Shown piece by piece: positions 2,579 through 45,193 of a stretch of DNA of 64,000 bases. The stretch is from positions 61,054-125,053 of IMG/VR virus record IMGVR_UViG_3300020156_000448, one strand, 5' to 3'. The stretch is from a virus. Every line of letters starts with the position of its first letter. Position 1 is the first letter of the stretch. The notes under the pieces were generated by a model. The model was not told the origin of the DNA and searched no databases. It was given only the letters and a program-made list of their open reading frames with translations. The translations under genes and the position numbers were made by a program.

Positions 2579-3655
2579 CTAATTTAATAATAGAGAATGC
2601 TGTTGTTGACCATAAAACATAAACAAAAACTCAAGCAATAACTGATATCGGCGTTCATTGGAAAGATTTTCTTTTCTTCCTAAAAGCTGAGCGTCACCCA
2701 AAAACCTATACATTAAGACAAGTTGATCCATTTGCTTTGATCTAGCCACGTTGCACGCAATTTTTAACACAAAAGGGTGGGGTGGGGTGATTCCTTCCTG
2801 CCCATATTCAATTGCATCTTGCTTTATTGCATCTCTAATTGAAGTTGCGTCATGATATCCAATATCCATATACTTCTTCATTAAAATCCATGTTCTAGCC
2901 TTGATTAATAAATTATGAAATATTAACTCTGGATGGACTTCACGCTCTCGAATTAGAGCATTTAAAATTGTTAGACTTTTGTTGAAATTACCGTCCTCAA
3001 GAGAGGAGATGAAACTAAAAATAGAAACGTCAGAAACGTCAGGAATCAGAATTTCAACATCAGAAACTGAGATGGGTCTAGATACGGAATTATAACATAG
3101 CCTTAATTTTTCTAATTCTGAAACCAGTACGCCTATATTATATTTACAGCGTCTCAATAAAAAAGATACAACTATATTACTCTCAAACACAATCCCTAAA
3201 TTATTAATTCTGTCACCAACCCATGACTCGGCAAAATCGACAGCTTCTCCATTTAGTTTTCCATACTCATTTATTGGAGAAACACATTCTATAGATTGTC
3301 CTTCTTTATTGAAAGCCTTATAGAACTTCGTAGTTTTTTCAACTGAATCAGAACTAACTATAAAATATAGATTCTTATTTTTAGAGATGGTTTCAAGCGC
3401 TTTTACTATTAGTTCTTTTTGAGAAGAAGTAGGATTGGAAAGAAGCACAATCCTCTTTCCTCCCAATCCCATAGATCGAAATAAGTTGATTAATATTTCA
3501 TCTTCTATTTCTTTACCTTCAATTCTTCTCTTTACAAGATTGTTATCTCCAGATAAATTTTTAATTAAATCATCCTTACAAACTTGCATCAACAGCGGAT
3601 CGCCATGAACTAAAAAATAGTTTTTAGTTCCATGTTCCATATGGTTCAATACCAA
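2579..3655 (-). CDS. holA: DNA polymerase III delta subunit-like (clamp loader)
   Basis: N-terminal YFLVHGD, SELEKLRL, ISVSDVEILI...SIFSFISSL and C-terminal HPFVLK pattern typical of HolA; near dnaN and dnaX. Confidence 0.8.
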   Translation of the reverse strand: MVLNHMEHGTKNYFLVHGDPLLMQVCKDDLIKNLSGDNNLVKRRIEGKEIEDEILINLFRSMGLGGKRIVLLSNPTSSQKELIVKALETISKNKNLYFIVSSDSVEKTTKFYKAFNKEGQSIECVSPINEYGKLNGEAVDFAESWVGDRINNLGIVFESNIVVSFLLRRCKYNIGVLVSELEKLRLCYNSVSRPISVSDVEILIPDVSDVSIFSFISSLEDGNFNKSLTILNALIREREVHPELIFHNLLIKARTWILMKKYMDIGYHDATSIRDAIKQDAIEYGQEGITPPHPFVLKIACNVARSKQMDQLVLMYRFLGDAQLLGRKENLSNERRYQLLLEFLFMFYGQQQHSLLLN

Positions 3656-4460
3656 CCTCTACTAACTTGCGGTGCTGAATCCAGCCACCTGAAAAGTTTC
3701 CTGATTTCGTATCTTCAGTATAAGCCATTGCTTGATGCTCAAATGGTGAAGCATGCTGGGGTTCACTAGCCATAAGGCGCTTGCAGATATTTAAGTCTTG
3801 TTCCCATTTAGAGCGTTGTCCGTCATGATAATAATAAGATACTCTAGCACATCTACCAGCACTGATTCTCACTTTCTCAATCACTTCTAATTCTTCTTCA
3901 TCAGGCAAAATGTAAGGAATATGCCACTCTCCAGGATGAAGCACCTGAGGAACACTTTGATCATACAAGATATGCATTTTACGAGCAATATCACTTATCT
4001 CTGGCTGTGCATCAGCATGATCTCTTAGCTTAAAAAAGTTTTCAAAATCAGTAGCAGTTACTACGACATTAGCTGCAAGCCAAGGTTCGATCAATCTATT
4101 GCATACTTGTTTATGCAATCCAATTTTCTCTAAAGTCCAATGACTTAAACATACTGCCCTAGAGGTTAGTTTCCAGATAAGCTTTGCAATAATTAAGTGG
4201 ATTCCACTCAACTCTTCTTGCGCCTGCATACCCTTTTGGTTCTTACCCCAATGAACAGGCATAAAAGGCGTTTTAAGCACCATTTCTCGCATCTTCTTAG
4301 CTGGAACGGCTCTAGAGCTTGCTGCGTTTCTAGAAAACTGTCTATGCGTATTCCATTCAGCAAGTAAAAGCTTCCAAAGACTCACCTGAAAGGTGGTGAT
4401 TCTTTTGCCAGTGACTGAATTAATTGAGTCACAAATAATTTTAACGTCATCAAAATCCAA
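3624..4460 (-). CDS. thyX: Flavin-dependent thymidylate synthase (phage type)
   Basis: EWNTHRQFSRNAASSRA signature, NFFKLR, AQPEI and HASPFEH. Confidence 0.9.
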   Translation of the reverse strand: MDFDDVKIICDSINSVTGKRITTFQVSLWKLLLAEWNTHRQFSRNAASSRAVPAKKMREMVLKTPFMPVHWGKNQKGMQAQEELSGIHLIIAKLIWKLTSRAVCLSHWTLEKIGLHKQVCNRLIEPWLAANVVVTATDFENFFKLRDHADAQPEISDIARKMHILYDQSVPQVLHPGEWHIPYILPDEEELEVIEKVRISAGRCARVSYYYHDGQRSKWEQDLNICKRLMASEPQHASPFEHQAMAYTEDTKSGNFSGGWIQHRKLVEVGIEPYGTWN

Positions 4461-4496
4461 ACTAATATTCTCCTATCTTGTATACATGTATATAAC

Positions 4497-6608: not shown

Positions 6609-7763
6609 CTAAGCCTCGCTTAAAAGTCCTACTAAACTGGCGAATGAATTATCCATAATGATTTTAAGAGGAGCTTCGCCATTTAAATCAAAGAATATTT
6701 CTACGTCTTCGCCTTCAACATTGTTTAACACATCAAGAATATATTGGGTATTAGTAGCAAAACTAGCTGTTCCGTTTATGCTCGCTGGAATCATCTCGTC
6801 GCCGCCTCCAACTGCTCCATAATCACCGAAACGAGCATCTGATCCAAGAGAAAGAGTTTGTTCATCTCCATTGAAAATCCATGAAGAAACAGGGGAAGAG
6901 TTCATGGTATTCTTTAGTGCAGATACAAGATCATCTTTGTTGACTGTAGCTCCGTTTGCGTACTCTCTATTGATATTAGTTTTCCAGTCAGGATAATTGG
7001 CAGCTAACTGGCGAGAATAAAACTTCATCATGGACTGCTTTACCATAATAATTTTTCCATCAGTAGCTATTTCTAAAGGGTTAATATCATCAAGCAGAGA
7101 TATCATTTCTTTTGCCCAAGCATTAAAGAAATAAAATACTCCATCTCCTTCCAAATAGCCAGGGGTGCCAATAGTGAAAGCAATTCTCTCTTCGTCACTT
7201 CCTACAGCGCATAATTCTCCATTAAAAGATTCAATTTTAATATTAGTTAACTCTAACTGATCTTGTTGCTTATAGGTAGCAAACTCGGTTTTCTTAATTA
7301 CCTTTTTAAAAAAAGAAGGCTCCATCTTTACGACTTTAATTTCATCGGAGAATCTAAAATCCCCCATTAAGAAACCCTCTACATTACTGCAAGGAACCCA
7401 ATAAGAAAGCTTCCTGCCATTACCTTTAGCAGCCTCAAGAACAAAGCGCTGGCTTATCAATTCCCCTTGTTGCTTCTCTTCAGCAAGAGAAACTTCAATG
7501 TTGGTATCGGGATAGCCTTTTATAAGATCAACCAGCTTTTGTCCCAAAACGCAACAAGAACCATTTTCCTCAATGGTAAGATAATTACCTATAGGTATAG
7601 TATAGTCTATCTTAATGTTCATATCGGTTGCTACCATGCGAAGACCTTCTGCGGTAGCTTCATGATAGATAAACCTGTAAATGCTATCTTCAGTACGGTG
7701 GAGTGCTCGACGCATTTTGTCGAGCACTCCACTATATACTGACTTATCAATGATAAACCGCAT
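6609..7763 (-). CDS. dnaN: DNA polymerase III beta sliding clamp
   Basis: MRFII, LRMVATDM, AVGSDEERIA, SRQLAANYPDW and NTQYILDVL; 384 aa. Confidence 0.9.
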   Translation of the reverse strand: MRFIIDKSVYSGVLDKMRRALHRTEDSIYRFIYHEATAEGLRMVATDMNIKIDYTIPIGNYLTIEENGSCCVLGQKLVDLIKGYPDTNIEVSLAEEKQQGELISQRFVLEAAKGNGRKLSYWVPCSNVEGFLMGDFRFSDEIKVVKMEPSFFKKVIKKTEFATYKQQDQLELTNIKIESFNGELCAVGSDEERIAFTIGTPGYLEGDGVFYFFNAWAKEMISLLDDINPLEIATDGKIIMVKQSMMKFYSRQLAANYPDWKTNINREYANGATVNKDDLVSALKNTMNSSPVSSWIFNGDEQTLSLGSDARFGDYGAVGGGDEMIPASINGTASFATNTQYILDVLNNVEGEDVEIFFDLNGEAPLKIIMDNSFASLVGLLSEA

Positions 7764-8263
7764 TACTCACCCACATCAATTTGAACACTTGCCATCTGGA
7801 AAACGTTCGTTAAGTATTCAATTCTATCCTCTACTGCACTAATGGTCTCATTAAGAACAGAGGGATCAAAGTTTGGTTCTATTTCAACATCATTAATAGG
7901 CTCATTGCTAAAAGAATCGTAATAATCATTTCGAACCCTCTTGAGGCGCGAAATAAAAGCAATATTAGCATCTAGCGTAAGCTTAACTTCTTTTAATGTT
8001 ACTCTCTTAGCTTCACCATCGTTAGCATCTTCAATATCTACAAGGTTGGACAATAAGGCTCGCTCAGCAAGAACGAGTAAATCTGTCTTTTCTTTTGAAA
8101 GTTCTAAATACTCACCCTGTAAATCCTCAAAGCTAATTTCTGGATTGCTTCCCTTAGCTACAAACGCCAGTTTGTCTGCGACATAGGTATTATCTGCTAT
8201 TTTATCTTCTATATTTTGCAGTCTAATATAAAGTTGATTTAAAGTCATTTTACTGTTCACCAA
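7763..8263 (-). CDS. Helical hypothetical protein (weak DIP1984-family-like pattern)
   Basis: [17 protein letters not shown]...VTLKEV; overlaps both neighbours, consistent with translational coupling. Confidence 0.55.
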
Positions 8264-8843
8264 TTTTTGTAATTTGTTTATCGATGAGCTTGTATTCTAC
8301 GGCGTCCAAACTACTTAACCAATAATCTCTTTCACAGTCGGCATGAATTTTTTCATAAGGCTGACCGCTGTGATGAGACATAATCTGATAAAGACGTTCT
8401 TTAAGTCTAAGCATTTCTTTCAAATCAATTTCTGCATCTGTGGCAACGCCTCTAAAGCCGCCGCGAGGCTGATGGATCATAATTCTGCTGTTCGGCATTC
8501 CGAACCTTTTGCCAGCAGCACCAGCCGATAGCAATACCGCAGCCATAGAAGCAGCCTGACCGATACATACAGTAGATACATCTGATTTAATAGCCTGCAT
8601 TACATCATAAATAGCAAGACCTGCGGTAATCACACCACCTGGACTATTAATGTATAGATAAATATCTTTTCCTGGAGCATCTGCATCTAAGAAAAGCAAC
8701 TGTGCTACAATAGAATTTGCTAGATGATCATCGATAGGATCGCTTAACATAATGATTCTATCTTTTAAAAGTCTGCTATAAATGTCATAGCTACGCTCAG
8801 AGCGTTCAGTTTTTTCAATTACGAAAGGAATTGCGTTTCTCAC
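8250..8843 (-). CDS. clpP: ATP-dependent Clp protease proteolytic subunit
   Basis: [28 protein letters not shown] (catalytic Ser), IMIHQP (His) and ERDYW (Asp). Confidence 0.97.
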
Positions 8844-8855
8844 TATATCCCACTT

Positions 8856-9851
8856 CTATCTGTTTAAATAATCATGAACCTGTCTCTCGAAAGTAGAAAG
8901 CTCATATTGTTCTACCTCGTTCAGTGCTACTAAATTCAATTCTTTTCTCAAAGAATTAATAATATCAGCTAATTTGATATTTGTAGATTTAAAGCCAGCG
9001 GCTCCACGGTGTCCTCCACCGCCCATTCTAGTAGCGAATTTAGCTAAGTCCAGATCGTCGAGAGAAGTTTTTAGCGAAATATTACCACTTTTATGATAGT
9101 ATATAATAGCAGAGCAATAGTTGGATAAAACGGAAACTAAATGTTGACTATCTAACTTATAAGTTGGATCATAAGCCACACATATTTGACTATCATTATC
9201 CCAATAAACCTTCACGTTCTTAAATGCGTCCCATTCTTTTTTGGAACCCTGAACAGCAGTTTGCGTTACCAAATATTGAAGGCGTTCGTTCGTTATATCA
9301 ACTTGGGATATCGCTTGGGCTGATTCTAATCCCCAATATTGCAATCCAAGCGTATCTTTAATTATTCCTAATGCAAGTACATCATTTTTTAGTCTAAAGC
9401 TATTTACTAAAATAGAGCAGGTTGAGCCTGCTAATTCGAGATGCGTAGTGTGGTTAGGATTTCCCATTCTTATTACTGGGCTGGATGTGGTAACATCTGG
9501 GAAAGTTTCCCTAATCCTATGAATATGATGATCGATATTATATACGAAATGCCTATTTAAATCAATAGGGAAACCTGTCCTATTAGGAGAAGGCTCACAA
9601 TCTACTACATACAACAACTTTACTGATTGACAAAATGGATGTTTAGGCGTGGTGATAATTAAATCTTTATTTTCATCAACTAAAAAAGCAAGGTTCTTAG
9701 GGTGGTTAGGAAGAAAAATATATGCTTTCTTGCCTTGGGATATTAGATGTTTCGCAATTGCAATTGATGAACATAAGCAATCTGCATCAGGAGATAAATG
9801 ACCCATGATTAGCGCATCATCTTCCTTTAAATCGTACTTATAAAAACTCAT
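8856..9851 (-). CDS. DHH/DHHA1 phosphoesterase (NrnA-like)
   Basis: GHLSPDADC, VVDC, IDHH, KDT and GGGGHRGAAG motifs. Confidence 0.85.
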   Translation of the reverse strand: MSFYKYDLKEDDALIMGHLSPDADCLCSSIAIAKHLISQGKKAYIFLPNHPKNLAFLVDENKDLIITTPKHPFCQSVKLLYVVDCEPSPNRTGFPIDLNRHFVYNIDHHIHRIRETFPDVTTSSPVIRMGNPNHTTHLELAGSTCSILVNSFRLKNDVLALGIIKDTLGLQYWGLESAQAISQVDITNERLQYLVTQTAVQGSKKEWDAFKNVKVYWDNDSQICVAYDPTYKLDSQHLVSVLSNYCSAIIYYHKSGNISLKTSLDDLDLAKFATRMGGGGHRGAAGFKSTNIKLADIINSLRKELNLVALNEVEQYELSTFERQVHDYLNR

Positions 9852-10619: not shown

Positions 10620-11396
10620 TTATTTCTTTGTCTTGCTTTGTTTTACTACATCTTTTGTATACTCTTTTTTTAGTTGAGCAGCAGACTTTTTTGTTTTCTT
10701 TTTATCAATCTTAACTGGAGGAGGCGTTTCTATAATATTTCTACCGACAAGTTCCTCTTTGACCTTATCTACTTTTTTCTTGGCTCTTTGAATAGCATTA
10801 TCTACGCTTTTGTTTTCAATATTAAGAGTTTCGGAGATTTCGTCATAAGACATATTTTCCAAATATAATTCAAAGACTTCTTTTTCCATTTTGGTTAAAT
10901 GATTAAAGAAAACTGCTTTGATATACTCAGCATATTGTCTATCTTCGATCTTTTTAGCGACAGAAAAATCACTTCCAAATGACGCAATCTTCTCGTGCTT
11001 ATCACACTCATTGCCATCTTCATCGTAAAGCAAACTATCAATTGAAGAGGCATCATTTAGCATTCTATGCTTTTGACGACGACTTTCGTCCATCAAAGAA
11101 ATAACTCTACGTCTAAAGAATATAAAAGCGAAGTATCTAAAAGTGGTGTTTGGTCGATAGTCGAATTTCTCGATTGCCTTCATTAGCATGATGGAGCATT
11201 CACTTTTAATATCATCTTCATCATAGCCTCTAACCCACCATCTGTACTGGGTGTGGATTTTCTTAATATCAGGCTCAACTAAATTAAGAAGAAATTCGAA
11301 GGCATCGCTATCTCCAGCTTTCGCTAGTGTAACGTACCTTCGAATTTCTTCTTCTTTCGCCGTCATTTTCGGCGCTTCATTAAAATCTGGTTCCAT
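10620..11396 (-). CDS. RNA polymerase sigma factor, SigH/Spo0H-like
   Basis: AKAGDSDAFEFL, DDIKSECSIMLMKAIEKFD, LTKMEKEVFELYLENMSYDEIS and KSVDNAIQRAKKK (the SigH region 4 pattern KSIDNALQR). Confidence 0.85.
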   Translation of the reverse strand: MEPDFNEAPKMTAKEEEIRRYVTLAKAGDSDAFEFLLNLVEPDIKKIHTQYRWWVRGYDEDDIKSECSIMLMKAIEKFDYRPNTTFRYFAFIFFRRRVISLMDESRRQKHRMLNDASSIDSLLYDEDGNECDKHEKIASFGSDFSVAKKIEDRQYAEYIKAVFFNHLTKMEKEVFELYLENMSYDEISETLNIENKSVDNAIQRAKKKVDKVKEELVGRNIIETPPPVKIDKKKTKKSAAQLKKEYTKDVVKQSKTKK

Positions 11397-11421: not shown

Positions 11422-12537
11422 TTAGGTATGATACATAGTCATTGCCTTTTGCAGTGCAACATCTACAAATATTCTAGGGTTTTGGTTATATACCAAATCT
11501 TTTGTAGAGCTACTTAATGTATATATAGTTCCAGCTAATCGCTGACTATCAAAACATTGGCTCAAAGTCATTAGTTCATTTGCTTGCTCTTCGGATTGGT
11601 AATTTGGCAACACATTTACATCACCAGTTACTTTATAAGCATAAATACCATACAGGTTTTCAATTACTTCATCGAGTATATTGGCTGCATTTATTGACGC
11701 CTTTTCTAATCCGTTGGTTATTTTCAATACCTTGCCCATATCTCGCTCAAGCAAAGCATAGAGTATGTGAATGATAAATCTATAATCAAACGAGTTTGTG
11801 ATACTTGAAGCTACCTCTTTTACTATCCTTCCAGAGCCTGCTAAAATAGCCTTCTCTAGCAAGGATAGGGCATCCCTCATCCCTCCTTTAGCGTTTTTGC
11901 TTATCAGGCGTAGAGCGACTTCTTCATACTCTATTCCTTCAGTTTTACATACGCTTTTTAGTCGGTCAAGTATTTGTTCTGAGGTAAACTTGCTAAATTC
12001 AAAAGAAATACATCTACTAAGGATGGTTTCTGGTATTCGATCTGATCCAGTAGTGCATAAAACTATATAAGTGTGAGGAGGAGGTTCCTCTAAAAACTTC
12101 AGCAAGGCACCAAAAGCGTCGTTTGAGAGGTTTTGAAACTCGTCAATGATAAGAACCCTATTTCTAACACTAAAAGACGCATAATTGGCGCTCTGCTTTA
12201 GTTTCTTAATATCATCGATGCCTCTGTTTGAGGCAGCATCTATTTCTATGACACCATCACAAGTACCACGCTCTATAGATATGCAAGCATTACACTGCAA
12301 ACACGGACTGCTAGTGCTTGTTTTTACGGTCTCGCAATTAAGGCACTTGGCAATAATTCTTGCGGAACTAGTCTTACCTGTTCCTTTTGGACCTCTCAGC
12401 ATAGTGCAAAACGGTACTTGGTTATTATCGGCGGCGTACACCAAAGAACTCACATTTAAGTATTGCCCTATAATTTCTTTAAGAGTCCTTGGTCTGTACT
12501 TATTCGGTAGATTCAGTGCCACCTTTTTTCCTTTCAA
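11422..12537 (-). CDS. dnaX: DNA polymerase III gamma/tau subunit (short, gamma-length)
   Basis: KYRPRTLKEIIGQ, GPKGTGKTS, Zn module CLNC...CLQCNAC, EIDAASN, IIDE, SRC and GGMRDALSLL. Confidence 0.95.
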   Translation of the reverse strand: MKGKKVALNLPNKYRPRTLKEIIGQYLNVSSLVYAADNNQVPFCTMLRGPKGTGKTSSARIIAKCLNCETVKTSTSSPCLQCNACISIERGTCDGVIEIDAASNRGIDDIKKLKQSANYASFSVRNRVLIIDEFQNLSNDAFGALLKFLEEPPPHTYIVLCTTGSDRIPETILSRCISFEFSKFTSEQILDRLKSVCKTEGIEYEEVALRLISKNAKGGMRDALSLLEKAILAGSGRIVKEVASSITNSFDYRFIIHILYALLERDMGKVLKITNGLEKASINAANILDEVIENLYGIYAYKVTGDVNVLPNYQSEEQANELMTLSQCFDSQRLAGTIYTLSSSTKDLVYNQNPRIFVDVALQKAMTMYHT

Positions 12538-35447: not shown

Positions 35448-35897
35448 TTAACCAATGTCAGGTATTCTGTTCATGACGCCATGTACTGGCAAATTTGCTT
35501 CAATTTCTAAAGCTGGATCAGAAACTTCACCATACTTTATCATCTGAGACAGATCATTTGGTACACTATTATTATTCTGAATTGGAAGTGGGATTCCTTC
35601 TTCCTGAGAATAATTAGGTTGATTTAAATTATACTGCACATTATTGATATTATTAATGTTATCTGGTACATGACCCTGAATACTAGAAACAATATTGAAA
35701 TCAATTTCTGGTAAATTTAACGATCTTAAAACATCCTGAGCATCACTAATACACTCTTGTTTTACCTGCTGAAAAACATCCTGATGAGCAGCGTGATCTG
35801 GTTGGTTAACATCAACTTTTGCTTCTGTCCAAACCTCAAACCACTCATATCTTCTTGGAGCTACACGAAGTCTAACTCCCTTTGTAATCTGCGCCAT
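35448..35897 (-). CDS. Hypothetical protein
   Basis: 149-aa ORF; GAGG Shine-Dalgarno. Confidence 0.6.
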   Translation of the reverse strand: MAQITKGVRLRVAPRRYEWFEVWTEAKVDVNQPDHAAHQDVFQQVKQECISDAQDVLRSLNLPEIDFNIVSSIQGHVPDNINNINNVQYNLNQPNYSQEEGIPLPIQNNNSVPNDLSQMIKYGEVSDPALEIEANLPVHGVMNRIPDIG

Positions 35898-35899
35898 TT

Positions 35900-36181
35900 T
35901 TAATCCTCGTCTTTTGCTTCCATTGGGAATATTAAGATATTACCCTTGTGACCATCTCTAATTAAATGATCTATTAAATTTGCTTCACATTTCATCATAA
36001 CTGATGCATGATCTGTTGCTCTGATTGGATTAGAACTAGGGACAGCATCTAAGTAGATAAAAGCCCAGCCATTTTCATCTCTCTTTATATCTTCCTTATT
36101 TCCTCTGATCTTAAATCCAAATTTCTCTGAGTGTGAATTGGCGTATTTTAGCGTCAATTTCATCAATTCATCGTCTGTCAT
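35900..36181 (-). CDS. Hypothetical protein
   Basis: 93-aa ORF; start overlaps the dnaE-C stop. Confidence 0.6.
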   Translation of the reverse strand: MTDDELMKLTLKYANSHSEKFGFKIRGNKEDIKRDENGWAFIYLDAVPSSNPIRATDHASVMMKCEANLIDHLIRDGHKGNILIFPMEAKDED

Positions 36182-38082
36182 TAAAATACACCTTTTAATC
36201 TTGGAATGGTCTTATTTTTAGATGGACCTTTACCCATTCTATCCTTAATACCTTGGCATCTAATGAACTCTGATTTTAATTCTGGTTCGCTCCCAAAGCA
36301 ATTAAGTGCGCCTGCGTTAATAAGACATTCCACAACACTCTTAGAGACTTTATTACTAGTTGTTGCTCCAAGATAAAAATCTTGAAATGTATTATACGGC
36401 TGATTGGCACAAATTTCTCTCTGTGCTTCAGTGCCCACACCTTTAATACAACTTAAAGGCTTGCGAATTTTATCATCTTCGATAGTGTATACATTTTTGC
36501 TATGATTAATATCAACAGGAAGAAACTTGATGTTAAAATATCTTGTAGCTTCGCGCTCATAATACTCTAAGTTTTCATCACAGTCTGCACCACCGCTATT
36601 TAATTCCACAGTTAACAACGCGCTATAGAACTCTCTAGGAAACAAAGCTTTAAGAAATGCAGTTGCATAAGCCAAATAAGCATAAGCCGCTGAGTGAGCC
36701 TTATTAAAGCAATAATTACCAAACTTCTCAAACTGATCCCAAAGGTTCGACACTTCCGCATCTCCCATGAGACCTGTTTCTTTAGCTCTTGCCCTGAACT
36801 TAGCCGCCATTTCAGGAAGTTTTTTAACGTCCTTTTTACCAATAATTTTTCTGAATTCATCGGCTTCTGTCTTGGTAAATCCAGCCAGAATTTGACACGT
36901 CTTCATTAACTGTTCCTGATAAATAAACAATCCTAATGTGCTCTTTAGAATATCATATAGAGCAGGATGAGGATAATTAATAGCACTTGCATTACTCTTT
37001 CTTTCAATAAAGAAGTTATGATAGCCGTTTGCTAGCGGTCCTGGTCTATAAAGAGCCACACCAGCTACTAAATCATCAAAGCATGTGGGCTGTAATTCCA
37101 TAAGGAACTTTGTAAAACCATATTTTTCAAACTGAAAAATACCTTTTGTAATTCCCTTGGCAATTAGATTAATAACACTAGGCGCAGTCTGTGTATCAAA
37201 AGGATTGAGATTCCAAATATCTATATCCTTGCCGTGACGCGCCTTAATCATATTAAGAGCCATATGAACAACCCTAAGCGTCTTTACGCCAAGAGTATCC
37301 ATCTTCATACATCCAAGCTCTTCACAGTCATGCATATCGAATTGTGTGATATAAATAACTTTCTTGGTGTCTTCTTCTTTCGAAAAGTGAAGAGGAATTA
37401 ATTCGGCAATTGGCTCGTCGGTAATAATAATTCCGCCTGCGTGCTTGCCTGTACTGGCTTTAATGCCAAATATCTTCTTAGCATCTACAAGAATGTTATC
37501 TAATTCAGGATGGGCTTGGCGATATGCGGCAAAATTAGCCTCATTAATAGCAGCGTCAAAGTCTTCGTTTAATCTGGTATCTACCAGCTTGGATAAGAAT
37601 ATAGCTGTATCAGAAATACTCATCACTTCACCATTTTCTGAGGGAAGCTGAAGACCATGATACTTAGATGCGTTTTGAAGAGCACCTTTTACTTTCCAGT
37701 TGCCAAATGTACCAATTGGAGCAACGTGATCAGCCCCGTATTTTTGAGTAATATATGCCTGAACTGGAGTAATGTCTTCAAAGTCAGTATCAATATCAGG
37801 AGGACTATATCTTACAAGATAATAATCATCTCTTAAATTAAGAGGTTTATCAAAATCACAACATACATCTGTTACTCCTATTAAATAGGACAAATAACAA
37901 TTAGCTTTATTAACACTGCCTTTAAAGTTTTGATTTACTAGCTTTCCTAGCGTCCTATAAAGACTCGGATGCTGCTCAAAGAAGTCCATCTCCTCACGCA
38001 GTCTCATCATTTCGACTGAATTCGGGTCAGTGTTGGCTAATCTTGTTCTATCTATCAGACTAAATAATTTTTGTCTATCCAT
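36181..38082 (-). CDS. dnaE: DNA polymerase III alpha, C-terminal half (palm/thumb/fingers/HhH)
   Basis: PDIDTDF (catalytic Asps), GKHAGG, TQFD, KMDTLG, GIFQFE, ALYRPGP, IYQEQ, FNKAHSAAY and IKGVG. Confidence 0.93.
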   Translation of the reverse strand: MDRQKLFSLIDRTRLANTDPNSVEMMRLREEMDFFEQHPSLYRTLGKLVNQNFKGSVNKANCYLSYLIGVTDVCCDFDKPLNLRDDYYLVRYSPPDIDTDFEDITPVQAYITQKYGADHVAPIGTFGNWKVKGALQNASKYHGLQLPSENGEVMSISDTAIFLSKLVDTRLNEDFDAAINEANFAAYRQAHPELDNILVDAKKIFGIKASTGKHAGGIIITDEPIAELIPLHFSKEEDTKKVIYITQFDMHDCEELGCMKMDTLGVKTLRVVHMALNMIKARHGKDIDIWNLNPFDTQTAPSVINLIAKGITKGIFQFEKYGFTKFLMELQPTCFDDLVAGVALYRPGPLANGYHNFFIERKSNASAINYPHPALYDILKSTLGLFIYQEQLMKTCQILAGFTKTEADEFRKIIGKKDVKKLPEMAAKFRARAKETGLMGDAEVSNLWDQFEKFGNYCFNKAHSAAYAYLAYATAFLKALFPREFYSALLTVELNSGGADCDENLEYYEREATRYFNIKFLPVDINHSKNVYTIEDDKIRKPLSCIKGVGTEAQREICANQPYNTFQDFYLGATTSNKVSKSVVECLINAGALNCFGSEPELKSEFIRCQGIKDRMGKGPSKNKTIPRLKGVF

Positions 38083-38092: not shown

Positions 38093-38557
38093 CTAAAACT
38101 CCGTAGGCGGTAACGCCTTAACTTCTTCTTCTTTTTCTTCTAGTTTAACTAGGTTTAAGCCAATAGTTTTTGCTGCTTCTAACACTTTTTCGTCCACGCG
38201 ATAAGCATTTCTAAAAAACACTGTCTTAATTCCAGAGTTAGCTATTAATTTAAAACATCCGTAGCAAGGAAATGCTGTTACGTACATTTCGGCACCTTCT
38301 ATTTTGACGCCATTACGAGCGGCTTGAATTAAACTATTTGCTTCTGCATGGACAGTGCGGACGCAGTGCCCATCAACCATTTGGTGATCCGCATCATCGC
38401 AATGGGGCGTGCCTTTTATGCTACCATTATAGCCTGTAGATAAAATAGTTTTATCTCTTACAACCACAGCGCCAACATGAAGACGGTTACAGGTTGCTCT
38501 GGTGGAAACCTGTTCGGCAATCTGCATAAAATATTCATTCCAAGAAACTCTAGACAT
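38093..38557 (-). CDS. dCMP deaminase (ComEB-like)
   Basis: RATCNRLHVGA, GYNG, HAEANS and PCYGC. Confidence 0.93.
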   Translation of the reverse strand: MSRVSWNEYFMQIAEQVSTRATCNRLHVGAVVVRDKTILSTGYNGSIKGTPHCDDADHQMVDGHCVRTVHAEANSLIQAARNGVKIEGAEMYVTAFPCYGCFKLIANSGIKTVFFRNAYRVDEKVLEAAKTIGLNLVKLEEKEEEVKALPPTEF

Positions 38558-38723
38558 TCAAATTTACTCCAAAAAATTTCATAACTTTTCTTATCGAAAT
38601 TTGAATTCTATAAGAAAATGAACGTTTTCTTTCATCCTCTTCAATTTGATCCAGAATCCTCTGATAAGCAGTGGCGCGGCTTCCTGGAAGAGTGAATTCG
38701 GGAATAATAATTATTGGCTTCAT
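38550..38723 (-). CDS. 57-aa small ORF missed by the ORF track (MKPIIIIPEFTLPGSRATAYQRILDQIEED...)
   Basis: Its ATG overlaps the dnaE-N stop (ATGA) and its stop overlaps the start of the deaminase; it fills the gap exactly. Confidence 0.6.
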   Translation of the reverse strand: MKPIIIIPEFTLPGSRATAYQRILDQIEEDERKRSFSYRIQISIRKVMKFFGVNLNV

Positions 38724-40057
38724 TCTACAAAGTCTCTCTCTTCCAAAACAAAGCCTTTTTCAGCAGCTAAGAAGCGCTCAAAGTCCAAGTCATACAAAAT
38801 AGGATCGATATTAGTAATACCTAGGCAAAACAGCATTAAAGAGCCTGCACCAGAACCTCTTCCTGGTCCCACAAAGATGTTATTTTTCCAAGCCCACTGT
38901 ATATAATCTCTAACCACAATAAAGTATTTGGAAAACTCTGTCTTTGTTACAACAGATAGCTCGTAAGTTAATCTATCCTTATATCTTTGGTCATTGTGGT
39001 ATCCCTTTTGAATGAGACCTTTCCACGATAAGAATGTGAGATACTGACCGTTCTTGTCCAAATGTCCAATAGTAGCTTTCCACGCATCCCTAAATTTACA
39101 GAATGCTTCGTAATCATCTTGGGTCTCTAGGTCAAAGTTAGGCAAGCGAGCTTTTGCTCTTGCTCCCAAGGGAATATCTACATTACACTTTTCTGCAATC
39201 GCCATAGTTTCTTCAATTGCAAATTGCAAACCCCCGAAGGTGGAATAGATTTCATCTGGAGTCTTTAAATAAAACTCGTTAAAATCACCATCCCTGCCTT
39301 CATTATTGTTGGCTGTGGTTAGGTCTTTACCAAACTGGCGAGCCTTCTTAATCTGCTGAGCCTGAAAGTCATCCTTACAGATATAGTGAGTGTCGTTTGT
39401 TAGCACCGAGCGTATACCAAGCTCTTGAGAAAGTCTAATGGTATTTTCCAGCACCATGCGCTGCTTTACGGCAAAATCACCTTGACCGCCTTGCAGGACG
39501 CCTTGGTTGTCCATAGCATGAAACATTAACTCTAGGTAATAATCGTCCTTGAAACGTTCTTTATATTTAGAGGCAACCATTTTAGCCATATTATAGCCTT
39601 CGTTGCCCTGATGTTTCAAGAATGATTCCGCTATTTCTCCCTTAATGCAGGCAGAACTAACAATGAGACCATCGCCATATTTATCCAACAAATCAAAGTC
39701 TAGGCGTGGTCGCGCATAATAGCGCTCTTGCTCATAGGATACTGTGGCAAGTTTTTTAAGATTCTTCCAACCTTGATCATTTTTTGCTATTAATAGCAAA
39801 TGGTTATTCGATCTCGAAGATTTATCGAGAGAATTATTGCACACATAAGCTTCCATGCCCAAGATAGGTTTAATACCTTCTTCTTGGCAAGCTTTATAGA
39901 ATTTAATCGAACCAGATAGCGTTCCATGGTCTGTTAATGCCAAAGCTGGCATACCCATGTTTTTCGCTGTTTTTACAAAATCTTTAATTTTACACAATCC
40001 GTCAATCAATGAATATTCGGAATGATTGTGTAATGAAACGTACATCTTATCTGACAT
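38720..40057 (-). CDS. dnaE: DNA polymerase III alpha, N-terminal half (PHP domain plus the GRGS segment)
   Basis: LHNHSEYSLIDG, TDHG, GMEAY, HLLL, SACIKGE, TNDTHY, GPGRGSGAGS, LGITNIDP and FERFL, followed shortly by a stop. Confidence 0.93.
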   Translation of the reverse strand: MSDKMYVSLHNHSEYSLIDGLCKIKDFVKTAKNMGMPALALTDHGTLSGSIKFYKACQEEGIKPILGMEAYVCNNSLDKSSRSNNHLLLIAKNDQGWKNLKKLATVSYEQERYYARPRLDFDLLDKYGDGLIVSSACIKGEIAESFLKHQGNEGYNMAKMVASKYKERFKDDYYLELMFHAMDNQGVLQGGQGDFAVKQRMVLENTIRLSQELGIRSVLTNDTHYICKDDFQAQQIKKARQFGKDLTTANNNEGRDGDFNEFYLKTPDEIYSTFGGLQFAIEETMAIAEKCNVDIPLGARAKARLPNFDLETQDDYEAFCKFRDAWKATIGHLDKNGQYLTFLSWKGLIQKGYHNDQRYKDRLTYELSVVTKTEFSKYFIVVRDYIQWAWKNNIFVGPGRGSGAGSLMLFCLGITNIDPILYDLDFERFLAAEKGFVLEERDFVE

Positions 40058-40111: not shown

Positions 40112-40726
40112 TTAGATCACTAGATTGGGCTTGTCAGTAGGCTCTGGATTCTTACCAACCTCATGGAGAGTTTTGCCGTGGATATGATCGTATAGATGAT
40201 GGATTACAATTGCACCCAAATCTGTAAATCTCTTCTCTCTCGTCTTGCCTTCCATGTCCTTATATGTAACTTTAATAACCAAACAACGCTTAGTCTTAAA
40301 GCTCAAATTAGGAATTGAAGGACAAGATTCCACTACTTCTCTTGTATACTTTGATGGTTTAATTTCTTTAATAGAGGGATTAACCATTAAAGTGGATTTA
40401 GGCTTGGTAGCAAGTAGAAACATTTGTAAGTCATGACCTACCTGCTGGGCTGAAACTCCGTAAGATTCACGCATGGCTAAATACTGTTCCATTTTACGCA
40501 AACAAATATCTGCTTCAGCCATATTTCCAGATGTTACGCGACGACCTTTAGTGGTCATGATCGGATCATCGTATTCTACAATTAACTTGGTTTCAAATGT
40601 CATTGATTCTGTAAGATCAATTTCTGAATCAATAACACTGGACAAATTCGCTAATGAGGAACCACTTGGCAAAATTGCATGATGATGGTGATCACAACCC
40701 TCTGAACAAGAGTGCGTATCGCTCAT
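40112..40726 (-). CDS. def: Peptide deformylase-like protein with degenerate catalytic motifs
   Basis: YGVSAQQVG (motif 1 GxGxAAxQ), MVNP, ESCPSIP (motif 2 EGCLS) and IHHLYDHIHG (motif 3 QHExDH, with Glu replaced by Leu). Confidence 0.8.
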   Translation of the reverse strand: MSDTHSCSEGCDHHHHAILPSGSSLANLSSVIDSEIDLTESMTFETKLIVEYDDPIMTTKGRRVTSGNMAEADICLRKMEQYLAMRESYGVSAQQVGHDLQMFLLATKPKSTLMVNPSIKEIKPSKYTREVVESCPSIPNLSFKTKRCLVIKVTYKDMEGKTREKRFTDLGAIVIHHLYDHIHGKTLHEVGKNPEPTDKPNLVI

Positions 40727-40735: not shown

Positions 40736-41536
40736 TTATTCTTTGTATTTCTCGTCATCATGGTTGGAAACACCTGCTATAAAACTAGAAGCTTTATAAC
40801 TGAACATTGTAAGATGAGGGGATGCTAAAAGGAATCCAAAAATTACTCTCTCGTCTTTAATCTCGTGTGTGGACGTGTATTTTTGTGAAAATCTACTGCT
40901 ATCGGGATCGATAGATAGTTGAAATTCAAGCATCTGAAGATTAAGTTCATCTTTTGTAGGAGCAAAGAAAGTCTTTATAATCATTGGACTCAAATCTCTG
41001 CCCTTATTTGGTTTTAGAATTACGGCTCCAATATGGGCGGGACCAGCAAAATTACGAAGTCCATAACCACTCACATTGTTTCCCTTTCGAAAATGATACT
41101 GTTTTACAAGTTCATTTCCAATATTGAAAGCCTCATCTAAAATTGCCGAACCGTCACTATTTCTATTTAATTCCATAGGTGGAATTGTTTTCAAGAATCC
41201 TGGAGTGGATATAAATCCATTCTCTGTTATATAAGTATAATCAAAATCTGAATAGGTGTCTGTTGAGATAAACAGATCGATTGGGTCTAAACCCACTATT
41301 TTATTATAACCTACTTCTTGAGAATAGAATGAAGACGGACCAACGTAAAGTGATTCGTTCGTTTTCCAACTTATATTGGTTTCATCAATGCCAGTTAATT
41401 GATCTAATTTATGAAGCGGAACACCATTATTCATCAATAACCCTGCGCTACCACCGTCAGCTACCCTATGAAATACAGGAATAACCATAAATGGGAACGT
41501 AGCCCTGTGTTCAACTAAATTAATTATCTCTGCCAT
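40736..41536 (-). CDS. Hypothetical protein
   Basis: 266-aa ORF; AGGT Shine-Dalgarno. Confidence 0.65.
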   Translation of the reverse strand: MAEIINLVEHRATFPFMVIPVFHRVADGGSAGLLMNNGVPLHKLDQLTGIDETNISWKTNESLYVGPSSFYSQEVGYNKIVGLDPIDLFISTDTYSDFDYTYITENGFISTPGFLKTIPPMELNRNSDGSAILDEAFNIGNELVKQYHFRKGNNVSGYGLRNFAGPAHIGAVILKPNKGRDLSPMIIKTFFAPTKDELNLQMLEFQLSIDPDSSRFSQKYTSTHEIKDERVIFGFLLASPHLTMFSYKASSFIAGVSNHDDEKYKE

Positions 41537-41595: not shown

Positions 41596-42759
41596 TTATT
41601 GGTAGCATCGACAATGTTTGTAGATAAAATCACTTAGCATGCTATTAAATGAATCTTTATCTTCAGAAGGACTATGGCTAAAATAAACCAAAGCCTCGTG
41701 TTTCCCAATTTTGTGTGGTCTATTTCTCCCGACAAAGCTGGCACAATCTATGTTTTCATTTTCGATGAAGTATTTAATGGTCTGTGATCCAATTAGCATA
41801 ATTGCATCAGGTTTTAGAATTTCAATCCGCTTATTAAGCCATTTGTTTTTACAAAGAATAGCCTCTTTGAATGGATTATTTTGATTGGAATAACAATTAA
41901 ATATATAATCTATCCAAACATTTTCTTTTTCAATGCCTGACTTGGAAAGATAGTCAATTAACTCTTCCCTGCCTTTGCCTCCCATCCCCAAAGCATCTTC
42001 TTCTGAGAGCGGAGAATCAAGCACAAACATAACATTAGATACATGGCTACCAAAGCCCGTTACTACACTCTTGCATCCGTAACGAAGACTACAATCGGTA
42101 CATGTTTTATTATCTAATCGAAGCTCTTCTATAGTCTTTTTTTTCTCATCCAAAGCTGATTCCAGAGTCTTGATGCTGGGCAATATTTCATTTTTAATTC
42201 TAGAAAGTTGCCTTTGATCCTGATCTACAATCGCTTGATCTAATACTTGATATATACGCCCTATCATGGCATCGATCTTAGGGGAGTTAAATTTTCTAGA
42301 AATTCTTTTTCCCTCAACCGAAACTAGATAATTAATATTGTTAGCATCAGGTTCACTATAGTCGTTAAGACACAAGGTTCTCAAAAAATCTTCGTATGCC
42401 ATTTCTGACAAAGAGACATTTGAAATGTCGTTTTTTAATCCTAATTTTGCTGCAAAAAAACCTACAGCTTGACCCCACGTGCTAAAGCCTTTATACTCTT
42501 TGGCAAATGCAATTACATCCCCGCCTCTATGACACTGACCAAAACAATACCAAGATTGGTCATATGTATAAACACGAAAACTAGGAGTGTTTTCTTTATG
42601 AAGCGGACAGCAGCAAGAGAGCATTTCTGCTCCAGACTTATATCCCGCACTAGATAAATGAACACCTTCTTGTTGAAGAAAGTCTACAAGCGAAACGCGC
42701 TTGCGGATTTCGTCCGCAAGCCGTTTCGCCTCTATGTAGTGAAGTTTATTTTCCTGCAT
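41596..42759 (-). CDS. Primase CHC2 zinc-binding domain fused to a degenerate family-4 uracil-DNA glycosylase-like domain
   Basis: CPLHKENTPSF...WYCFGQCHRGGDVIAF; C-terminal CTDCSL...VVTGFGS...VMFVLDSP...FNC...C..WL...IEILKPDAIMLIG...HSPS. Confidence 0.85.
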   Translation of the reverse strand: MQENKLHYIEAKRLADEIRKRVSLVDFLQQEGVHLSSAGYKSGAEMLSCCCPLHKENTPSFRVYTYDQSWYCFGQCHRGGDVIAFAKEYKGFSTWGQAVGFFAAKLGLKNDISNVSLSEMAYEDFLRTLCLNDYSEPDANNINYLVSVEGKRISRKFNSPKIDAMIGRIYQVLDQAIVDQDQRQLSRIKNEILPSIKTLESALDEKKKTIEELRLDNKTCTDCSLRYGCKSVVTGFGSHVSNVMFVLDSPLSEEDALGMGGKGREELIDYLSKSGIEKENVWIDYIFNCYSNQNNPFKEAILCKNKWLNKRIEILKPDAIMLIGSQTIKYFIENENIDCASFVGRNRPHKIGKHEALVYFSHSPSEDKDSFNSMLSDFIYKHCRCYQ

Positions 42760-44395
42760 TTATTGAGCCATCTAAATTAATGAGAGCATCTAAGTTTAAA
42801 GAGTTTACGTTATTCTGAGCAATATCGGAATAAATTCCTTCTCTGTCAGCCGCCAAGACAGGAACTTCCGCCTCACCGCCTATACGGGCAGCGCCTCTTC
42901 CAGCGTTCCACGGAACCATAATTGTATCTCCATTGTTTTGCCGCACTGGAGAACCCTGCATATTTGCAGCTTCGTCAGCAATGCCGCCAATGGGAGCAAA
43001 TCCAACAGTATTTTGTGGGTCTTCAAACTTACACAAGTCTCCAAGGAATATTAAATCAACTCTCCAGTCCTTAGAACCGTTTCTCTGTTTTACCAATCCA
43101 ATAGTAACACTGTTTGAATCATCTGGGTTAATCTTAATCGTGATAACCGCATCAGCATCCTGACCTGGCTGGTTAGAGCCTTCGAGGTTTTCTAGTCCCA
43201 ATTCAGTTTCCTTTTTGTTTCTAACCCATCTTACAGAGTTTCTATTAGCCTGAGCCAATAGAATAGCAGCATGATCCCAGCGCTTTGCCAAATCACGGAT
43301 TTCCTTAGCAATATCTCCTAGGTCCGTGCTTCTATTATCTCTTCTAACGTTTGGGGGTTTAATAAGCCCAAGGTGATCCCAAATAATAATATCTGGTGGG
43401 TCATTCTTGTAGTGCTTCTCTAGCTTGGCTTCGATTTGAGATACTGTAAATTTACCTGCCTGAACTTCGATGACTCTAAAGTAAGAACCATCTCCACCAT
43501 CTTTTTTTCTAGACTTTAAGCGGTTTCTCCACTCATCGATCTTAGCAATATCTACATCTTTTAATTCGCCGTTAATCCATGCGTTATGCGAAATACCGCA
43601 TTCAGCAGAAGCGATCTTGCGCATAAAATCTTCACGGGATTCTTCGCATGAGATCACCAATATTTTGGCTTTATACTGAAGCTGAATTTTCCTAGCTACA
43701 CATCTAGCAAATGAGGTTTTACCAGAAGAAGACATACCCATAATGATGGACATTTTCTTCTTTTCAAAACCATTAAACTTCTTATCAATGATGCCATATC
43801 CAGTTTTGTATCCTGTATACATGTCTGGATTTTCTTTTCTGCGTACAGCATCATCAAATATTAAATCCACACCATCGTCTTCAAGATCAGACATCTTGTA
43901 AGACTCTTCTTCTGCGTATACTTCTTCAATTCTATGGAGCTTATGAAGAAGAGATGTGTAGGCATCCTTAATATCAGCGCCTTTAATATCTTCATTGTAT
44001 TTTCTATAAGCTTCAAGAATACTATACCCAGCCACAGTATGTTGCCACTGCTCGAACTTAACTGGAAAATCATCTTCTTGATATTCATAAGAAAGAAGAT
44101 TATCATAGAATTCTTCGTATGGAGCTATTAAGGGATTATTAATTCCTTGAAGTCTGAATGAAGTTATGATGCGCTCAATAAATTGAGCTTTTGTAATAAC
44201 AGCATCATGCTTCTCAAAGCACTCTACAACTCTTCTGAAAAAAAGTTGACAGTCTTCATTGAGAAACCAGTTTGGGTCTACTCCACGGTCTAGCGTGTAG
44301 CGAATATATTTTTTATCTTTAATCAAAAATGAGAGAATAACTAATTCTAACTCATTCTCAACTACTGATATTTGATCTAATTGTCCTATTGACAT
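42746..44395 (-). CDS. dnaB: Replicative DNA helicase
   Basis: GYKTGY, GMSSSGKT, ISCEE, IWDHLGLI, LAQANR, GQDAD and KQRNG. Confidence 0.9.
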   Translation of the reverse strand: MSIGQLDQISVVENELELVILSFLIKDKKYIRYTLDRGVDPNWFLNEDCQLFFRRVVECFEKHDAVITKAQFIERIITSFRLQGINNPLIAPYEEFYDNLLSYEYQEDDFPVKFEQWQHTVAGYSILEAYRKYNEDIKGADIKDAYTSLLHKLHRIEEVYAEEESYKMSDLEDDGVDLIFDDAVRRKENPDMYTGYKTGYGIIDKKFNGFEKKKMSIIMGMSSSGKTSFARCVARKIQLQYKAKILVISCEESREDFMRKIASAECGISHNAWINGELKDVDIAKIDEWRNRLKSRKKDGGDGSYFRVIEVQAGKFTVSQIEAKLEKHYKNDPPDIIIWDHLGLIKPPNVRRDNRSTDLGDIAKEIRDLAKRWDHAAILLAQANRNSVRWVRNKKETELGLENLEGSNQPGQDADAVITIKINPDDSNSVTIGLVKQRNGSKDWRVDLIFLGDLCKFEDPQNTVGFAPIGGIADEAANMQGSPVRQNNGDTIMVPWNAGRGAARIGGEAEVPVLAADREGIYSDIAQNNVNSLNLDALINLDGSINAGK

Positions 44396-44410
44396 TAATT
44401 GCTCCTAATT

Positions 44411-45193
44411 TTATGAGAGATAACGGTATTCTTGCTGGAAGACTTGTAATAAAAAGTCTAATTCAGCCGCCGTGTAATTGGGCTTATCGTTTCTCTTCTG
44501 CTTTAGGAACGCGACGAGAGCATCGATATTATAAGTAATATCTGCTCTATTATCCTGCTCGTGAATAATCTCACAGGAAATTATAAACTCATCGAAATAA
44601 CTAATTAAAGATTCAGAATACTGGGTAGATAAAACCCTTGGGTCTACGTAGGCAGAAAATATCGTTGGCTTATTTTCTTTTCTTCTCTCTAAAACCACAT
44701 CCGCAAACCCATTGCAGACTTTGCTTGTTCTTAAGCATTTTGGAGAAACGCTATCAAGCATAAGAAAATCTACATTATGGTAGCGCTCTCTTACTTCAGC
44801 GTCACCATCCCAATCTAAATTCTCACAAAAAGTTGGAAAGCTTTCAAACATAGCTGTGTAACCGTATTCGATAGCTGCCCTCAGAATCAAAGTTCCAAGA
44901 AGACTCATTCCAAGCTTTTGGTTAGGCAGACCGTAAAGATATATGCCTTTGCCGCTCTCTCTATTTTTATGTATATTCAAAATATATTGGCGCGTCGTTT
45001 GAAGCGCGTTTTCTTTAGAAGGATTAACTTTGCCTCGAAGTGTGGCAACGTTATAGAATTTTGTTCCTTCTTTTCCCGTGAGGGAATAATCTAAAAATTC
45101 TGGCGGAATACCAGAACTTTTAATTTTGTTTTTGACATTTTCGTGATATACCTTTTGCAGATACTCTTTATAATTGTCGTCCAAGTTTTCCAT
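44411..45193 (-). CDS. DnaC/IstB-like helicase loader with degenerate Walker motifs
   Basis: SGIPPEF, GKGIYLYG-LPNQKLGMS (Walker A without the Lys), VDFLMLDSV and RRKENKPTIFS; directly upstream of dnaB. Confidence 0.7.
   Translation of the reverse strand: MENLDDNYKEYLQKVYHENVKNKIKSSGIPPEFLDYSLTGKEGTKFYNVATLRGKVNPSKENALQTTRQYILNIHKNRESGKGIYLYGLPNQKLGMSLLGTLILRAAIEYGYTAMFESFPTFCENLDWDGDAEVRERYHNVDFLMLDSVSPKCLRTSKVCNGFADVVLERRKENKPTIFSAYVDPRVLSTQYSESLISYFDEFIISCEIIHEQDNRADITYNIDALVAFLKQKRNDKPNYTAAELDFLLQVFQQEYRYLS

Follow-up and report, generated by a model that had tools for sequence, protein, structure and literature searches.

The DNA considered here is a 64,000-nucleotide stretch (hereafter the window) comprising bases 61054-125053 of the 125,053-base IMG/VR record IMGVR_UViG_3300020156_000448, for which CheckV estimates a completeness of 76%, and its subject is a bacterial-type DNA polymerase III (Pol III) replication module located between positions 2579 and 45193. 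An earlier note, made from the letters of this stretch, had listed dnaN, holA, dnaX, two dnaE halves, dnaB, a dnaC-like gene and two dnaG halves; this gene content is observed directly, since all of these genes are found by family-model matches and every gene then listed is located on the minus strand within 2579-45193. Throughout the first ~46 kb of the window the GC skew is negative and nearly all genes are encoded by the minus strand. The phage identity of the record is indicated by a terminase large subunit (phrog_2, E = 8e-14) and a tail-fibre-like protein, both encoded in the half of the record outside the window, whereas genes for replication and nucleotide metabolism, typed by PHROGs, lie in the window. 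A 160,387-base contig from another source encodes this same DnaE protein. No DNA polymerase besides the split DnaE is detected in the record, in which a hidden Markov model (HMM) search of all 125,053 bases discloses no match to PolA or PolB.

The polymerase subunit alpha (DnaE) is encoded in two genes. The N-terminal half (38720-40057, minus strand, 445 residues) comprises a PHP domain (PF02811, 162.6 bits, residues 9-178) and the first part of the palm (positions 2-98 of 260 of the palm model, at residues 339-434), and aligns to residues 6-458 of Taq alpha. The C-terminal half (36181-38082, minus strand, 633 residues) comprises palm positions 68-260, the thumb, the fingers (Finger, 161.6 bits) and the helix-hairpin-helix region (HhH; HHH_6 at residues 518-598), and aligns to residues 427-953 of Taq alpha and 366-893 of E. 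coli alpha. The palm, fingers and HhH families (PF07733, PF17657 and PF14579) are thereby all matched between the two halves. The catalytic aspartates reside in the C-half, in the motif PDIDTDF at residues 95-101 and at D262, as aligned to Taq. The break falls between the FERFL motif and the catalytic PDIDxDF, with the N-half extending only 15 residues beyond FERFL, its last conserved alpha motif. Both halves align to residues 427-458 of Taq alpha, the C-half portion of this alignment being of low confidence, and a segment duplication at the break finds no significant support in a blastp comparison of the tail of the N-half with the head of the C-half (E = 0.41). A split intein at the break was considered and rejected, given that no intein family occurs among the Pfam matches of either half and that only 15 residues follow FERFL. 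The two halves are separated by a dCMP deaminase gene (38093-38557, minus strand; dCMP_cyt_deam_1, 91.7 bits; phrog_174, E = 9e-51). Two other open reading frames (ORFs), 13823-16345 and 17860-20325, were also considered as dnaE halves and discarded, their Pfam matches identifying them as a ClpB-like ATPase and a ribonucleotide reductase, respectively.

The C-half ends 35 residues beyond HHH_6, and both the OB fold and the tau-binding domain found in the cellular subunit are absent. A profile of the cellular alpha C-terminal region, comprising the clamp motif, the OB fold and the C-terminal domain and built from 49 cellular DnaE sequences, finds nothing below E = 0.1 in the 1103 six-frame ORFs of at least 40 residues in the record, with filters off, and the OB-fold family PF01336 has no match in the record. 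The ORFs 35900-36181, which begins on the stop codon of the dnaE C-half, and 35448-35897, evaluated as possible OB or tau-binding pieces, show no family match, no match to the C-terminal profile and no relatives in the 80 viral loci described below.

The N-half conserves the residues expected of a proofreading PHP domain. H10, H12, D19, H44, E69, H86, C137, D222 and H224, which we take to be the PHP metal ligands, are identical to those of Taq alpha. According to PMC3919608, DnaE1 outside Proteobacteria conserves the nine PHP metal positions (defined on Taq DnaE1 and PolC), which are associated with a zinc-dependent exonuclease that proofreads. The DnaE N-half, with its Taq-type PHP ligands, thus probably proofreads by itself, and the absence of DnaQ need not be a functional gap, because the ligands are kept. 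The exonuclease family PF00929, to which DnaQ belongs, has no match in the record. The ORF 34762-35421 was evaluated as a DnaQ candidate and rejected, its sole support being a match to NF004963 (epsilon) at E = 0.008, with PDB, PHROGs and Pfam giving nothing relevant.

The last eight residues of the C-half (residues 626-633; 36184-36207, minus strand) form a conserved hydrophobic tail and a candidate clamp-binding peptide. They are conserved in the clade of the window, being kept in four close relatives (P0002-P0005), and lie ~27 residues beyond HhH; E. coli alpha carries its internal clamp-binding pentapeptide at that position. When the clamp and residues 545-633 of DnaE-C are modelled as a complex, from alignments built for the purpose by the authors, the scores are 0.57, 0.57 and 0.51, with 0.00 for the best of three controls, values that fall in the weak band: among reference pairs, 58 of 80 solved complexes and 2 of 110 mismatched pairs reach the mark for such scores, and at 0.60 or below stand only 7 of those 80 together with both mismatches. 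The contacts agree by at least 73% between runs, and the partner displays a predicted local distance difference test (pLDDT) value of at least 71. Solved clamp-peptide complexes exist, and the score may therefore reflect memory or likeness only. The tail is a plausible candidate for a clamp-binding peptide, to which the prediction lends weak support.

The clamp and the clamp loader are encoded at the module's opposite end. The dnaN-like gene (6609-7763, minus strand, 384 residues) specifies a putative, very divergent beta-type clamp, with matches to the N-terminal domain of Pfam DNA_pol3_beta (37.1 bits) and, just below threshold, to the central domain (26.8 bits; cut-off 27), and an unmatched C-terminal domain. 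Its homologues comprise two close sequences (85% and 42% identity) and then cellular beta clamps at 22-24% identity, aligned end to end. The delta subunit is encoded by holA (2579-3655, minus strand, 358 residues), which matches TIGR01128 with 100.5 bits (cut-off 80) over residues 15-327; a tblastn search with HolA gives no match in 50,697 phage records.

The dnaX gene (11422-12537, minus strand) encodes a protein of gamma length, comprising domains I-III. The 371 residues, from a TTG start (366 residues as called elsewhere), match DNA_pol3_delta2 (PF13177, 114.7 bits) and the ATPase lid (PF22608, 55.7 bits), with a GKT Walker A motif at 49-57, an SRC motif at 174-176 and a retained collar domain III. 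Residues 10-367 align to residues 6-358 of E. coli gamma/tau, so that the alignment ends with domain III, and the next gene lies 25 nucleotides downstream. The tau domains IV and V (PF12168 and PF12170) show no match, these models being a weak control that clears its cut-off in 1 of 14 control genomes; the loss of the tau domains is hence argued from the length of DnaX and from its alignment. With respect to delta-prime (HolB), TIGR00678 and PF13177 pass their thresholds in the record only on DnaX, and the other matches of these models are sub-cut-off, at 14-15 bits, within the ClpB-like ORF (PF13177, 14.1 bits). The holB model gives a match in every bacterial control genome. The earlier remark that neither holB nor dnaQ is visible in the window is borne out, at the HMM level, across the whole 125,053-base, 76%-complete record, in which an OB fold is likewise not found. 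As a separate observation, dnaX stands in a triplet with genes for a dNMP kinase and a sigma-70-like factor (10620-11396, 11422-12537 and 13165-13872) that is conserved in 461-kb and 133-kb relatives, an arrangement that suggests co-regulation of the clamp-loader gene with a phage sigma factor.

The domain limits of the window proteins recur in related phages, as direct comparison discloses. The four close relatives of DnaE-C (43-52% identity) end where the window protein ends, with the tail conserved, and P0002-P0004 also start where it starts, P0005 being without its N-terminus; one of them, P0003, contains an intein (PF14890) inserted after an FN-x-SH motif. Past the five close relatives, the best DnaE-C matches are cellular DnaE proteins at 33-38% identity, most of them with PF01336. 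Exact-peptide scans of viral contigs with DnaE-C alone or with HolA find none, an alignment query being needed, and a scan with the alignment of close relatives recovers 80 DnaE loci on IMG/VR viral contigs. Both halves are present in one ORF in 62 of these loci and in different ORFs in 17, the remaining one, on a short contig, comprising the C part only. The cellular-type C-terminal profile is matched in 44 of the 80. A tail of at most 40 residues after HhH is found only in L019, L020 and L075, and in L062, which is cut by the end of its contig; the other 76 loci have at least 134 residues there.

L019, L020 and L075 are deep relatives (~32% identity) in which dnaE is broken at exactly the site found in the window, and a hydrophobic tail, ...[IM]F[GE], closes each of their C-halves. 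The window and these three loci share a common gene order, dnaB, zinc-ribbon primase, dnaE-N, dnaE-C, SSB-like, recA, Toprim primase and PD-(D/E)XK nuclease, with the genes between the dnaE halves varying from none in L020 to several in L019. The L020 N-half ORF (7184-9799) is itself unusual, since it comprises 872 residues, ~390 more than those of its relatives. The triplet of dNMP kinase, dnaX and sigma-like genes also occurs in the L019 and L020 records (G001 and G002, respectively). G001 comprises 460,978 bases with terminal repeats and is rated 100% complete. Its single DnaX comprises 375 residues (phmmer E = 2e-50 to the window DnaX) and is accompanied by a delta-like gene; the only protein of G001 matched by PF13177 and the holB model is DnaX, and PF01336 finds nothing there. 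Altogether, two of the three truncated deep relatives, including the complete one, encode a DnaX of 375-376 residues and a delta-like gene, with delta-prime not detected.

In a FastTree phylogeny, the clade of the window and the clade of L019 each have full local support and both fall outside a group of 28 cellular sequences; a single origin of the truncated clades would be argued from their shared split site and synteny. Two further loci, L081 and L082, share the split site and display tails of 291-340 residues without a match to the cellular profile, so that the split may predate the truncation. As for DnaX, 114 of its best 120 matches comprise 456-648 residues (median 557), three belong to the phage clade (366, 366 and 367 residues, the last two lengths being those of relatives P0123 and P0124), and the remaining ones are two proteins labelled partial and one of 418 residues on a 1.8-kb contig. 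Whether such lengths are ordinary for the donor lineage, a finding that would have counted against the earlier note, has a divided answer: they are not ordinary for cells, as the DnaX lengths and the PF01336 of cellular DnaE indicate, and they are ordinary for the phage lineage. Judged from these sequences, the reduced design is a trait of a phage lineage and is not ordinary for any cellular donor.

The helicase, a loader-like protein and the primase complete the fork. The DnaB helicase (42746-44395, minus strand, 549 residues) matches DnaB_C with 116.4 bits over residues 195-459 and aligns, over residues 155-459, to residues 146-440 of G. stearothermophilus DnaB, leaving a C-terminal extension of 90 residues; the DnaB proteins of the relatives also carry C-terminal tails. 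Beside it, the gene 44411-45193 (minus strand) encodes a 260-residue IstB/DnaC-type helicase-loader-like protein, with matches to phrog_50 (E = 6.4e-6) and to DnaI NF006505 (E = 2.2e-4, far under the cut-off), and with Atlas features (0.95) and structural similarity (TM-score 0.63-0.68) to IstB_IS21 clusters. A GK[ST] Walker A motif is absent from this sequence, and the protein may act without ATP hydrolysis.

The primase is divided between two proteins encoded 9 kb apart, one with the zinc ribbon and the other with the Toprim core. The former (41596-42759, minus strand, 387 residues) is a DnaG zinc ribbon (Zn_ribbon_DnaG, 61.4 bits at 13-111) fused to a UDG-like domain (26.2 bits at 240-365), and its gene overlaps the end of dnaB by 14 nucleotides; the zinc-ribbon genes that follow dnaB in L020 and L075 encode only ~200-216 residues. 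The latter (31496-32311, minus strand, 271 residues) comprises the Toprim core alone (Toprim_4, 48.3 bits; DNAG_N, 47.8 bits), with residues 10-249 aligned to residues 31-272 of the E. coli primase core (1dd9) and nothing after. The C-terminal domain of DnaG (PF08278 and PF10410) has no match in the record, the control for these models being weak. The truncations read earlier from the letters thus stand in the alignments, namely a DnaX of 371 residues without the tau C-terminal domains, which aligns no further than domain III, a DnaE C-half that ends just after HhH without OB fold or tau-binding tail, and a DnaG without helicase-binding domain, whose Toprim protein aligns to the primase core only.

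The single-stranded DNA-binding protein (SSB) that had been listed with the bacterial replisome is present as a gene and departs from the bacterial type. The gene (33534-34721, minus strand, with a likely start at 34640 giving 368 residues) encodes a putative gp32-type SSB with a long P/Q-rich tail, and the bacterial SSB family PF00436 has no match at E ≤ 1 in the record. An AlphaFold2 model built with 12 homologues displays pLDDT values of 82-93 over residues 21-170, and its top five PDB fold matches are T4 and RB69 gp32 cores (E from 1e-4 to 1.5e-3; probability 0.99-1.00), at low TM-scores of 0.24-0.43; Atlas features relate it at 0.92 to gp32 clusters. Pfam gives no match to the protein and a PDB profile search with its alignment only a low-complexity match. 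Four residues (H42, C51, C95 and C98) are nearly invariant among the homologues, as would suit a gp32-like zinc site. The adjacent gene (32315-33520, minus strand) encodes a RecA-like recombinase (RecA, 191 bits), which holds the same position in L019, L020 and L075.

Other genes of the record include a peptide deformylase inside the replication operon (40112-40726, minus strand) and an ADP-ribosylglycohydrolase (16644-17444, minus strand) between the ClpB-like and ribonucleotide reductase genes. The window also encodes ClpP (8250-8843), the two-ring ClpB/ClpA-like AAA+ protein (13823-16345) and a full DnaJ (50157-51185), a DnaJ homologue (E = 3e-31) being present in the giant-phage record of L020. 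A 902-residue family 4 glycosyltransferase (51185-53893, plus strand) may hold an intein, as suggested by a weak intein-splicing match at residues 246-607 (23.1 bits; cut-off 35.8), and precedes a sugar-metabolism block (53877-62907) comprising a GDP-mannose 4,6-dehydratase and at least five glycosyltransferases, an unusual cargo at such phage size. Outside the window, G000:C1:49445-55522 is an ORF of 2025 residues with a tRNA nucleotidyltransferase domain (phrog_2244, E = 6e-42).

It is probable that this module, from a large tailed phage of at least 125 kb with relatives up to 461 kb, constitutes a C-family replicase of which only the catalytic and clamp parts are left, loosely coupled and working on its own clamp. 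Alpha would function as a two-subunit enzyme assembled from its halves, with proofreading through the PHP domain, and would be held on the phage's own clamp through the tail of DnaE-C. The clamp would be loaded by DnaX and delta without delta-prime, presumably as four DnaX and one delta by analogy with T4 gp44/62, and DnaB would be loaded with help from the ATPase-degenerate IstB/DnaC-like protein, the set being completed by the two-protein primase, the gp32-type SSB and RecA. Because DnaX lacks tau domains IV and V, alpha its OB fold and its tau-binding tail, and DnaG its C-terminal domain, the clamp loader cannot tie the polymerase to the helicase. The fork is hence most likely loosely coupled, or held by lineage-specific contacts, for which the 90-residue C-terminal extension of DnaB and the zinc-ribbon protein, translationally coupled to dnaB, could be candidates.

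The suggestion of the earlier note that the replisome is wired differently from the canonical one is accordingly plausible, whereas its statement that all canonical coupling interfaces were lost is overstated, since the module still has its clamp, the delta wrench and the DnaX collar, together with a conserved C-terminal tail where the alpha-beta motif would lie. Nor can the interfaces be said to have been lost together: the loss cannot be dated, and L081 and L082 share the split yet keep long, unrelated tails.

Several observations weigh against a reduced, self-contained replicase. The dnaN-like protein scores 109 bits to TIGR00663 over residues 1-375, under the cut-off of 137.65, and the tail of the window DnaE-C does not fit Q-x-x-[LM]-F, which we take to be the clamp-binding pattern and which is approached by the L019 group; the complex score, as noted, lies in the weak band. 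The FastTree phylogeny, which gives local support only, does not join the two truncated clades. The complete relative G001 has, at a distance of ~100 kb from dnaE, a gene for a DnaQ-like protein (RNase_T, 66.6 bits), so that exonuclease-free operation is no rule of the lineage; this protein has no homologue in the record of the window. The missing ~24% of the genome could hold delta-prime, DnaQ or a coupling protein, and six ORFs of the module have no assignable function (12500-13135, 34762-35421, 35448-35897, 35900-36181, 40736-41536 and 45206-46162), any of which could be an unrecognised subunit.

The most far-reaching version of the proposal envisages a fully self-encoded replisome, without tau or delta-prime, in a deep lineage of large-to-giant phages (125-461 kb), comprising a gamma4-delta loader of 4+1 stoichiometry, a private beta clamp, a two-subunit, PHP-proofreading alpha that ends at a clamp peptide, and lineage-specific contacts between polymerase, helicase and primase. 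We regard this version as possible and, on balance, doubtful, the sole pointer to orthogonality to the host, raised in the earlier note, being a clamp that is only 22-24% identical to cellular beta. The same low identity argues against the opposite view, of a host-dependent hybrid in which the phage parts plug into host delta-prime, epsilon, tau, chi-psi or SSB and which would not be orthogonal to the host replisome. Such a hybrid would account for the failure to find delta-prime and DnaQ in the record with a holB model that recognises every bacterial control genome, and for a phage DnaX that keeps the collar, which binds delta and delta-prime in E. coli. It is nevertheless unlikely, given that an alpha without the tau-binding tail and a DnaX without the alpha- and DnaB-binding domains close the canonical routes to host tau, that the SSB is apparently of the gp32 type and not of the bacterial type bound by chi, and that the 100%-complete relative G001 is also without a detected delta-prime.

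The reduction would be only apparent if the missing pieces had escaped detection, either in the ~24% of the genome outside the record or among fast-evolving ORFs of the module (35900-36181, 35448-35897, 12500-13135 and 45206-46162). The incompleteness of the record, the six module ORFs without family match, the start of ORF 35900-36181 on the dnaE-C stop codon and the distance of ~100 kb between the DnaQ-like gene and dnaE of the complete relative are in keeping with this explanation. We consider it improbable, because the unassigned ORFs have no phmmer match in the 80 loci and are missed by profiles made from ORFs that follow dnaE-C in L019, L020 and L075, the alpha C-terminal profile and PF01336 are negative in the record, PF01336 is also negative in the complete relative, and the epsilon match of 34762-35421 (E = 0.008) lacks PDB or PHROG support. 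A still more distant prospect is that the split DnaE serves in repair or as an accessory polymerase, in the manner of DnaE2/ImuC, the genome being replicated by a host polymerase or by an unseen phage one. Some jumbo phages do encode split, minimal Pol III alpha modules beside a family B replicase, as described in PMC7824862, and the record is incomplete. PolA and PolB are, however, not found in the record, dnaE lies in an operon-like block with dnaB, primase, SSB and recA, the phage has its own clamp and loader, and it keeps intact PHP ligands, which are lost in DnaE2 and DnaE3 according to PMC3919608; an accessory role is thus very improbable.

Models of the bacterial replisome place tau at the centre, binding polymerase, helicase and clamp loader. 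The reduced replicase favoured here comprises a polymerase, clamp, loader, helicase and primase of bacterial families, yet without a detected tau-type link or delta-prime, and is conserved in phages from 125 kb to 461 kb. If self-sufficient, it would define a minimal functional Pol III set and provide (i) a test case for a bacterial clamp loader free of delta-prime and (ii) a possible basis on which to build replication systems free of interference with that of the host; should the fully self-encoded version hold, it would represent a natural minimal Pol III holoenzyme without cross-talk to the host replisome. If host subunits are needed, the module would disclose host interfaces that a phage can exploit without tau. 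Either way, it widens the published view of phage C-family replicases, which have been described as host-like in architecture (PMC7824862) and rare (PMC4889955).

Compared with the bacterial Pol III core (E. coli; 1jr3, 3glf and 5fku), the phage proteins belong to the same polymerase, clamp, loader ATPase and delta families and preserve PDIDxDF, Walker A, SRC and the collar. In contrast, the phage alpha comprises two chains without OB fold or tau-binding domain, delta-prime, epsilon, theta, chi and psi are not found, and the SSB is non-bacterial. The phage DnaX stops at the end of domain III, as does the E. coli gamma truncation used for crystallography. The best PDB matches of alpha are the PHP-proofreading DnaE1 enzymes of Taq and mycobacteria (2hpi/4iqj, 5lew and 7pu7), with E = 1e-79 for the C-half and 7e-64 for the N-half; unlike the phage alpha, these are single chains of 1184-1220 residues with OB fold and C-terminal domain. 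The replication gene in two pieces with another gene between them resembles the fractured genes with split inteins reportedly described by Dassa et al. in 2009 (PMC2677866), and differs from them by having no intein domain at the dnaE break.

Among phages, a phage-borne alpha with an N-terminal PHP domain is shared with group 3.2 jumbo phages (Bacillus phage G as well as Clostridium phage c-st; PMC7824862) and with Streptomyces phages; that paper describes the Pol III alpha of group 3.2 as closely resembling the host enzyme in architecture, and group 2.2 jumbo phages as encoding a family B polymerase along with a Pol III module of another kind, minimal and split. The DnaE-like gene of a Streptomyces phage comprises 1106 residues, extending 168 codons beyond the end of the DnaE-C match, whereas the alpha of the window is split, truncated and accompanied by delta. 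According to PMC4889955, phages rarely have a C-family polymerase, they are the only viruses with homologues of beta and gamma, and DnaB, DnaG and a C-family polymerase are found together in only eight of the phages surveyed. Searches of the main texts of largely open-access papers returned no report of a phage alpha whose chain is broken ahead of the catalytic aspartates and terminated after HhH, or of a phage delta lacking delta-prime.

The T4 replisome (gp43, gp45, gp44/62, gp41, gp61, gp32 and UvsX) offers a parallel in logic. A C-terminal tail holds the T4 polymerase on the phage's own clamp, the 4+1 loader works without a tau-like hub, and coupling is loose; the gp32 SSB contains a zinc site, and a RecA-family recombinase stands beside the replication genes. 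The phage module would share with T4 the clamp-tethering tail, the 4+1 loader and the gp32-type SSB, all three of them putative, and shares the RecA-family gene nearby. The building blocks nevertheless differ: in T4 the polymerase is of family B, the clamp is trimeric and PCNA-like, and the loader is of the RFC kind, whereas polymerase, clamp and loader of the window phage all belong to bacterial families.

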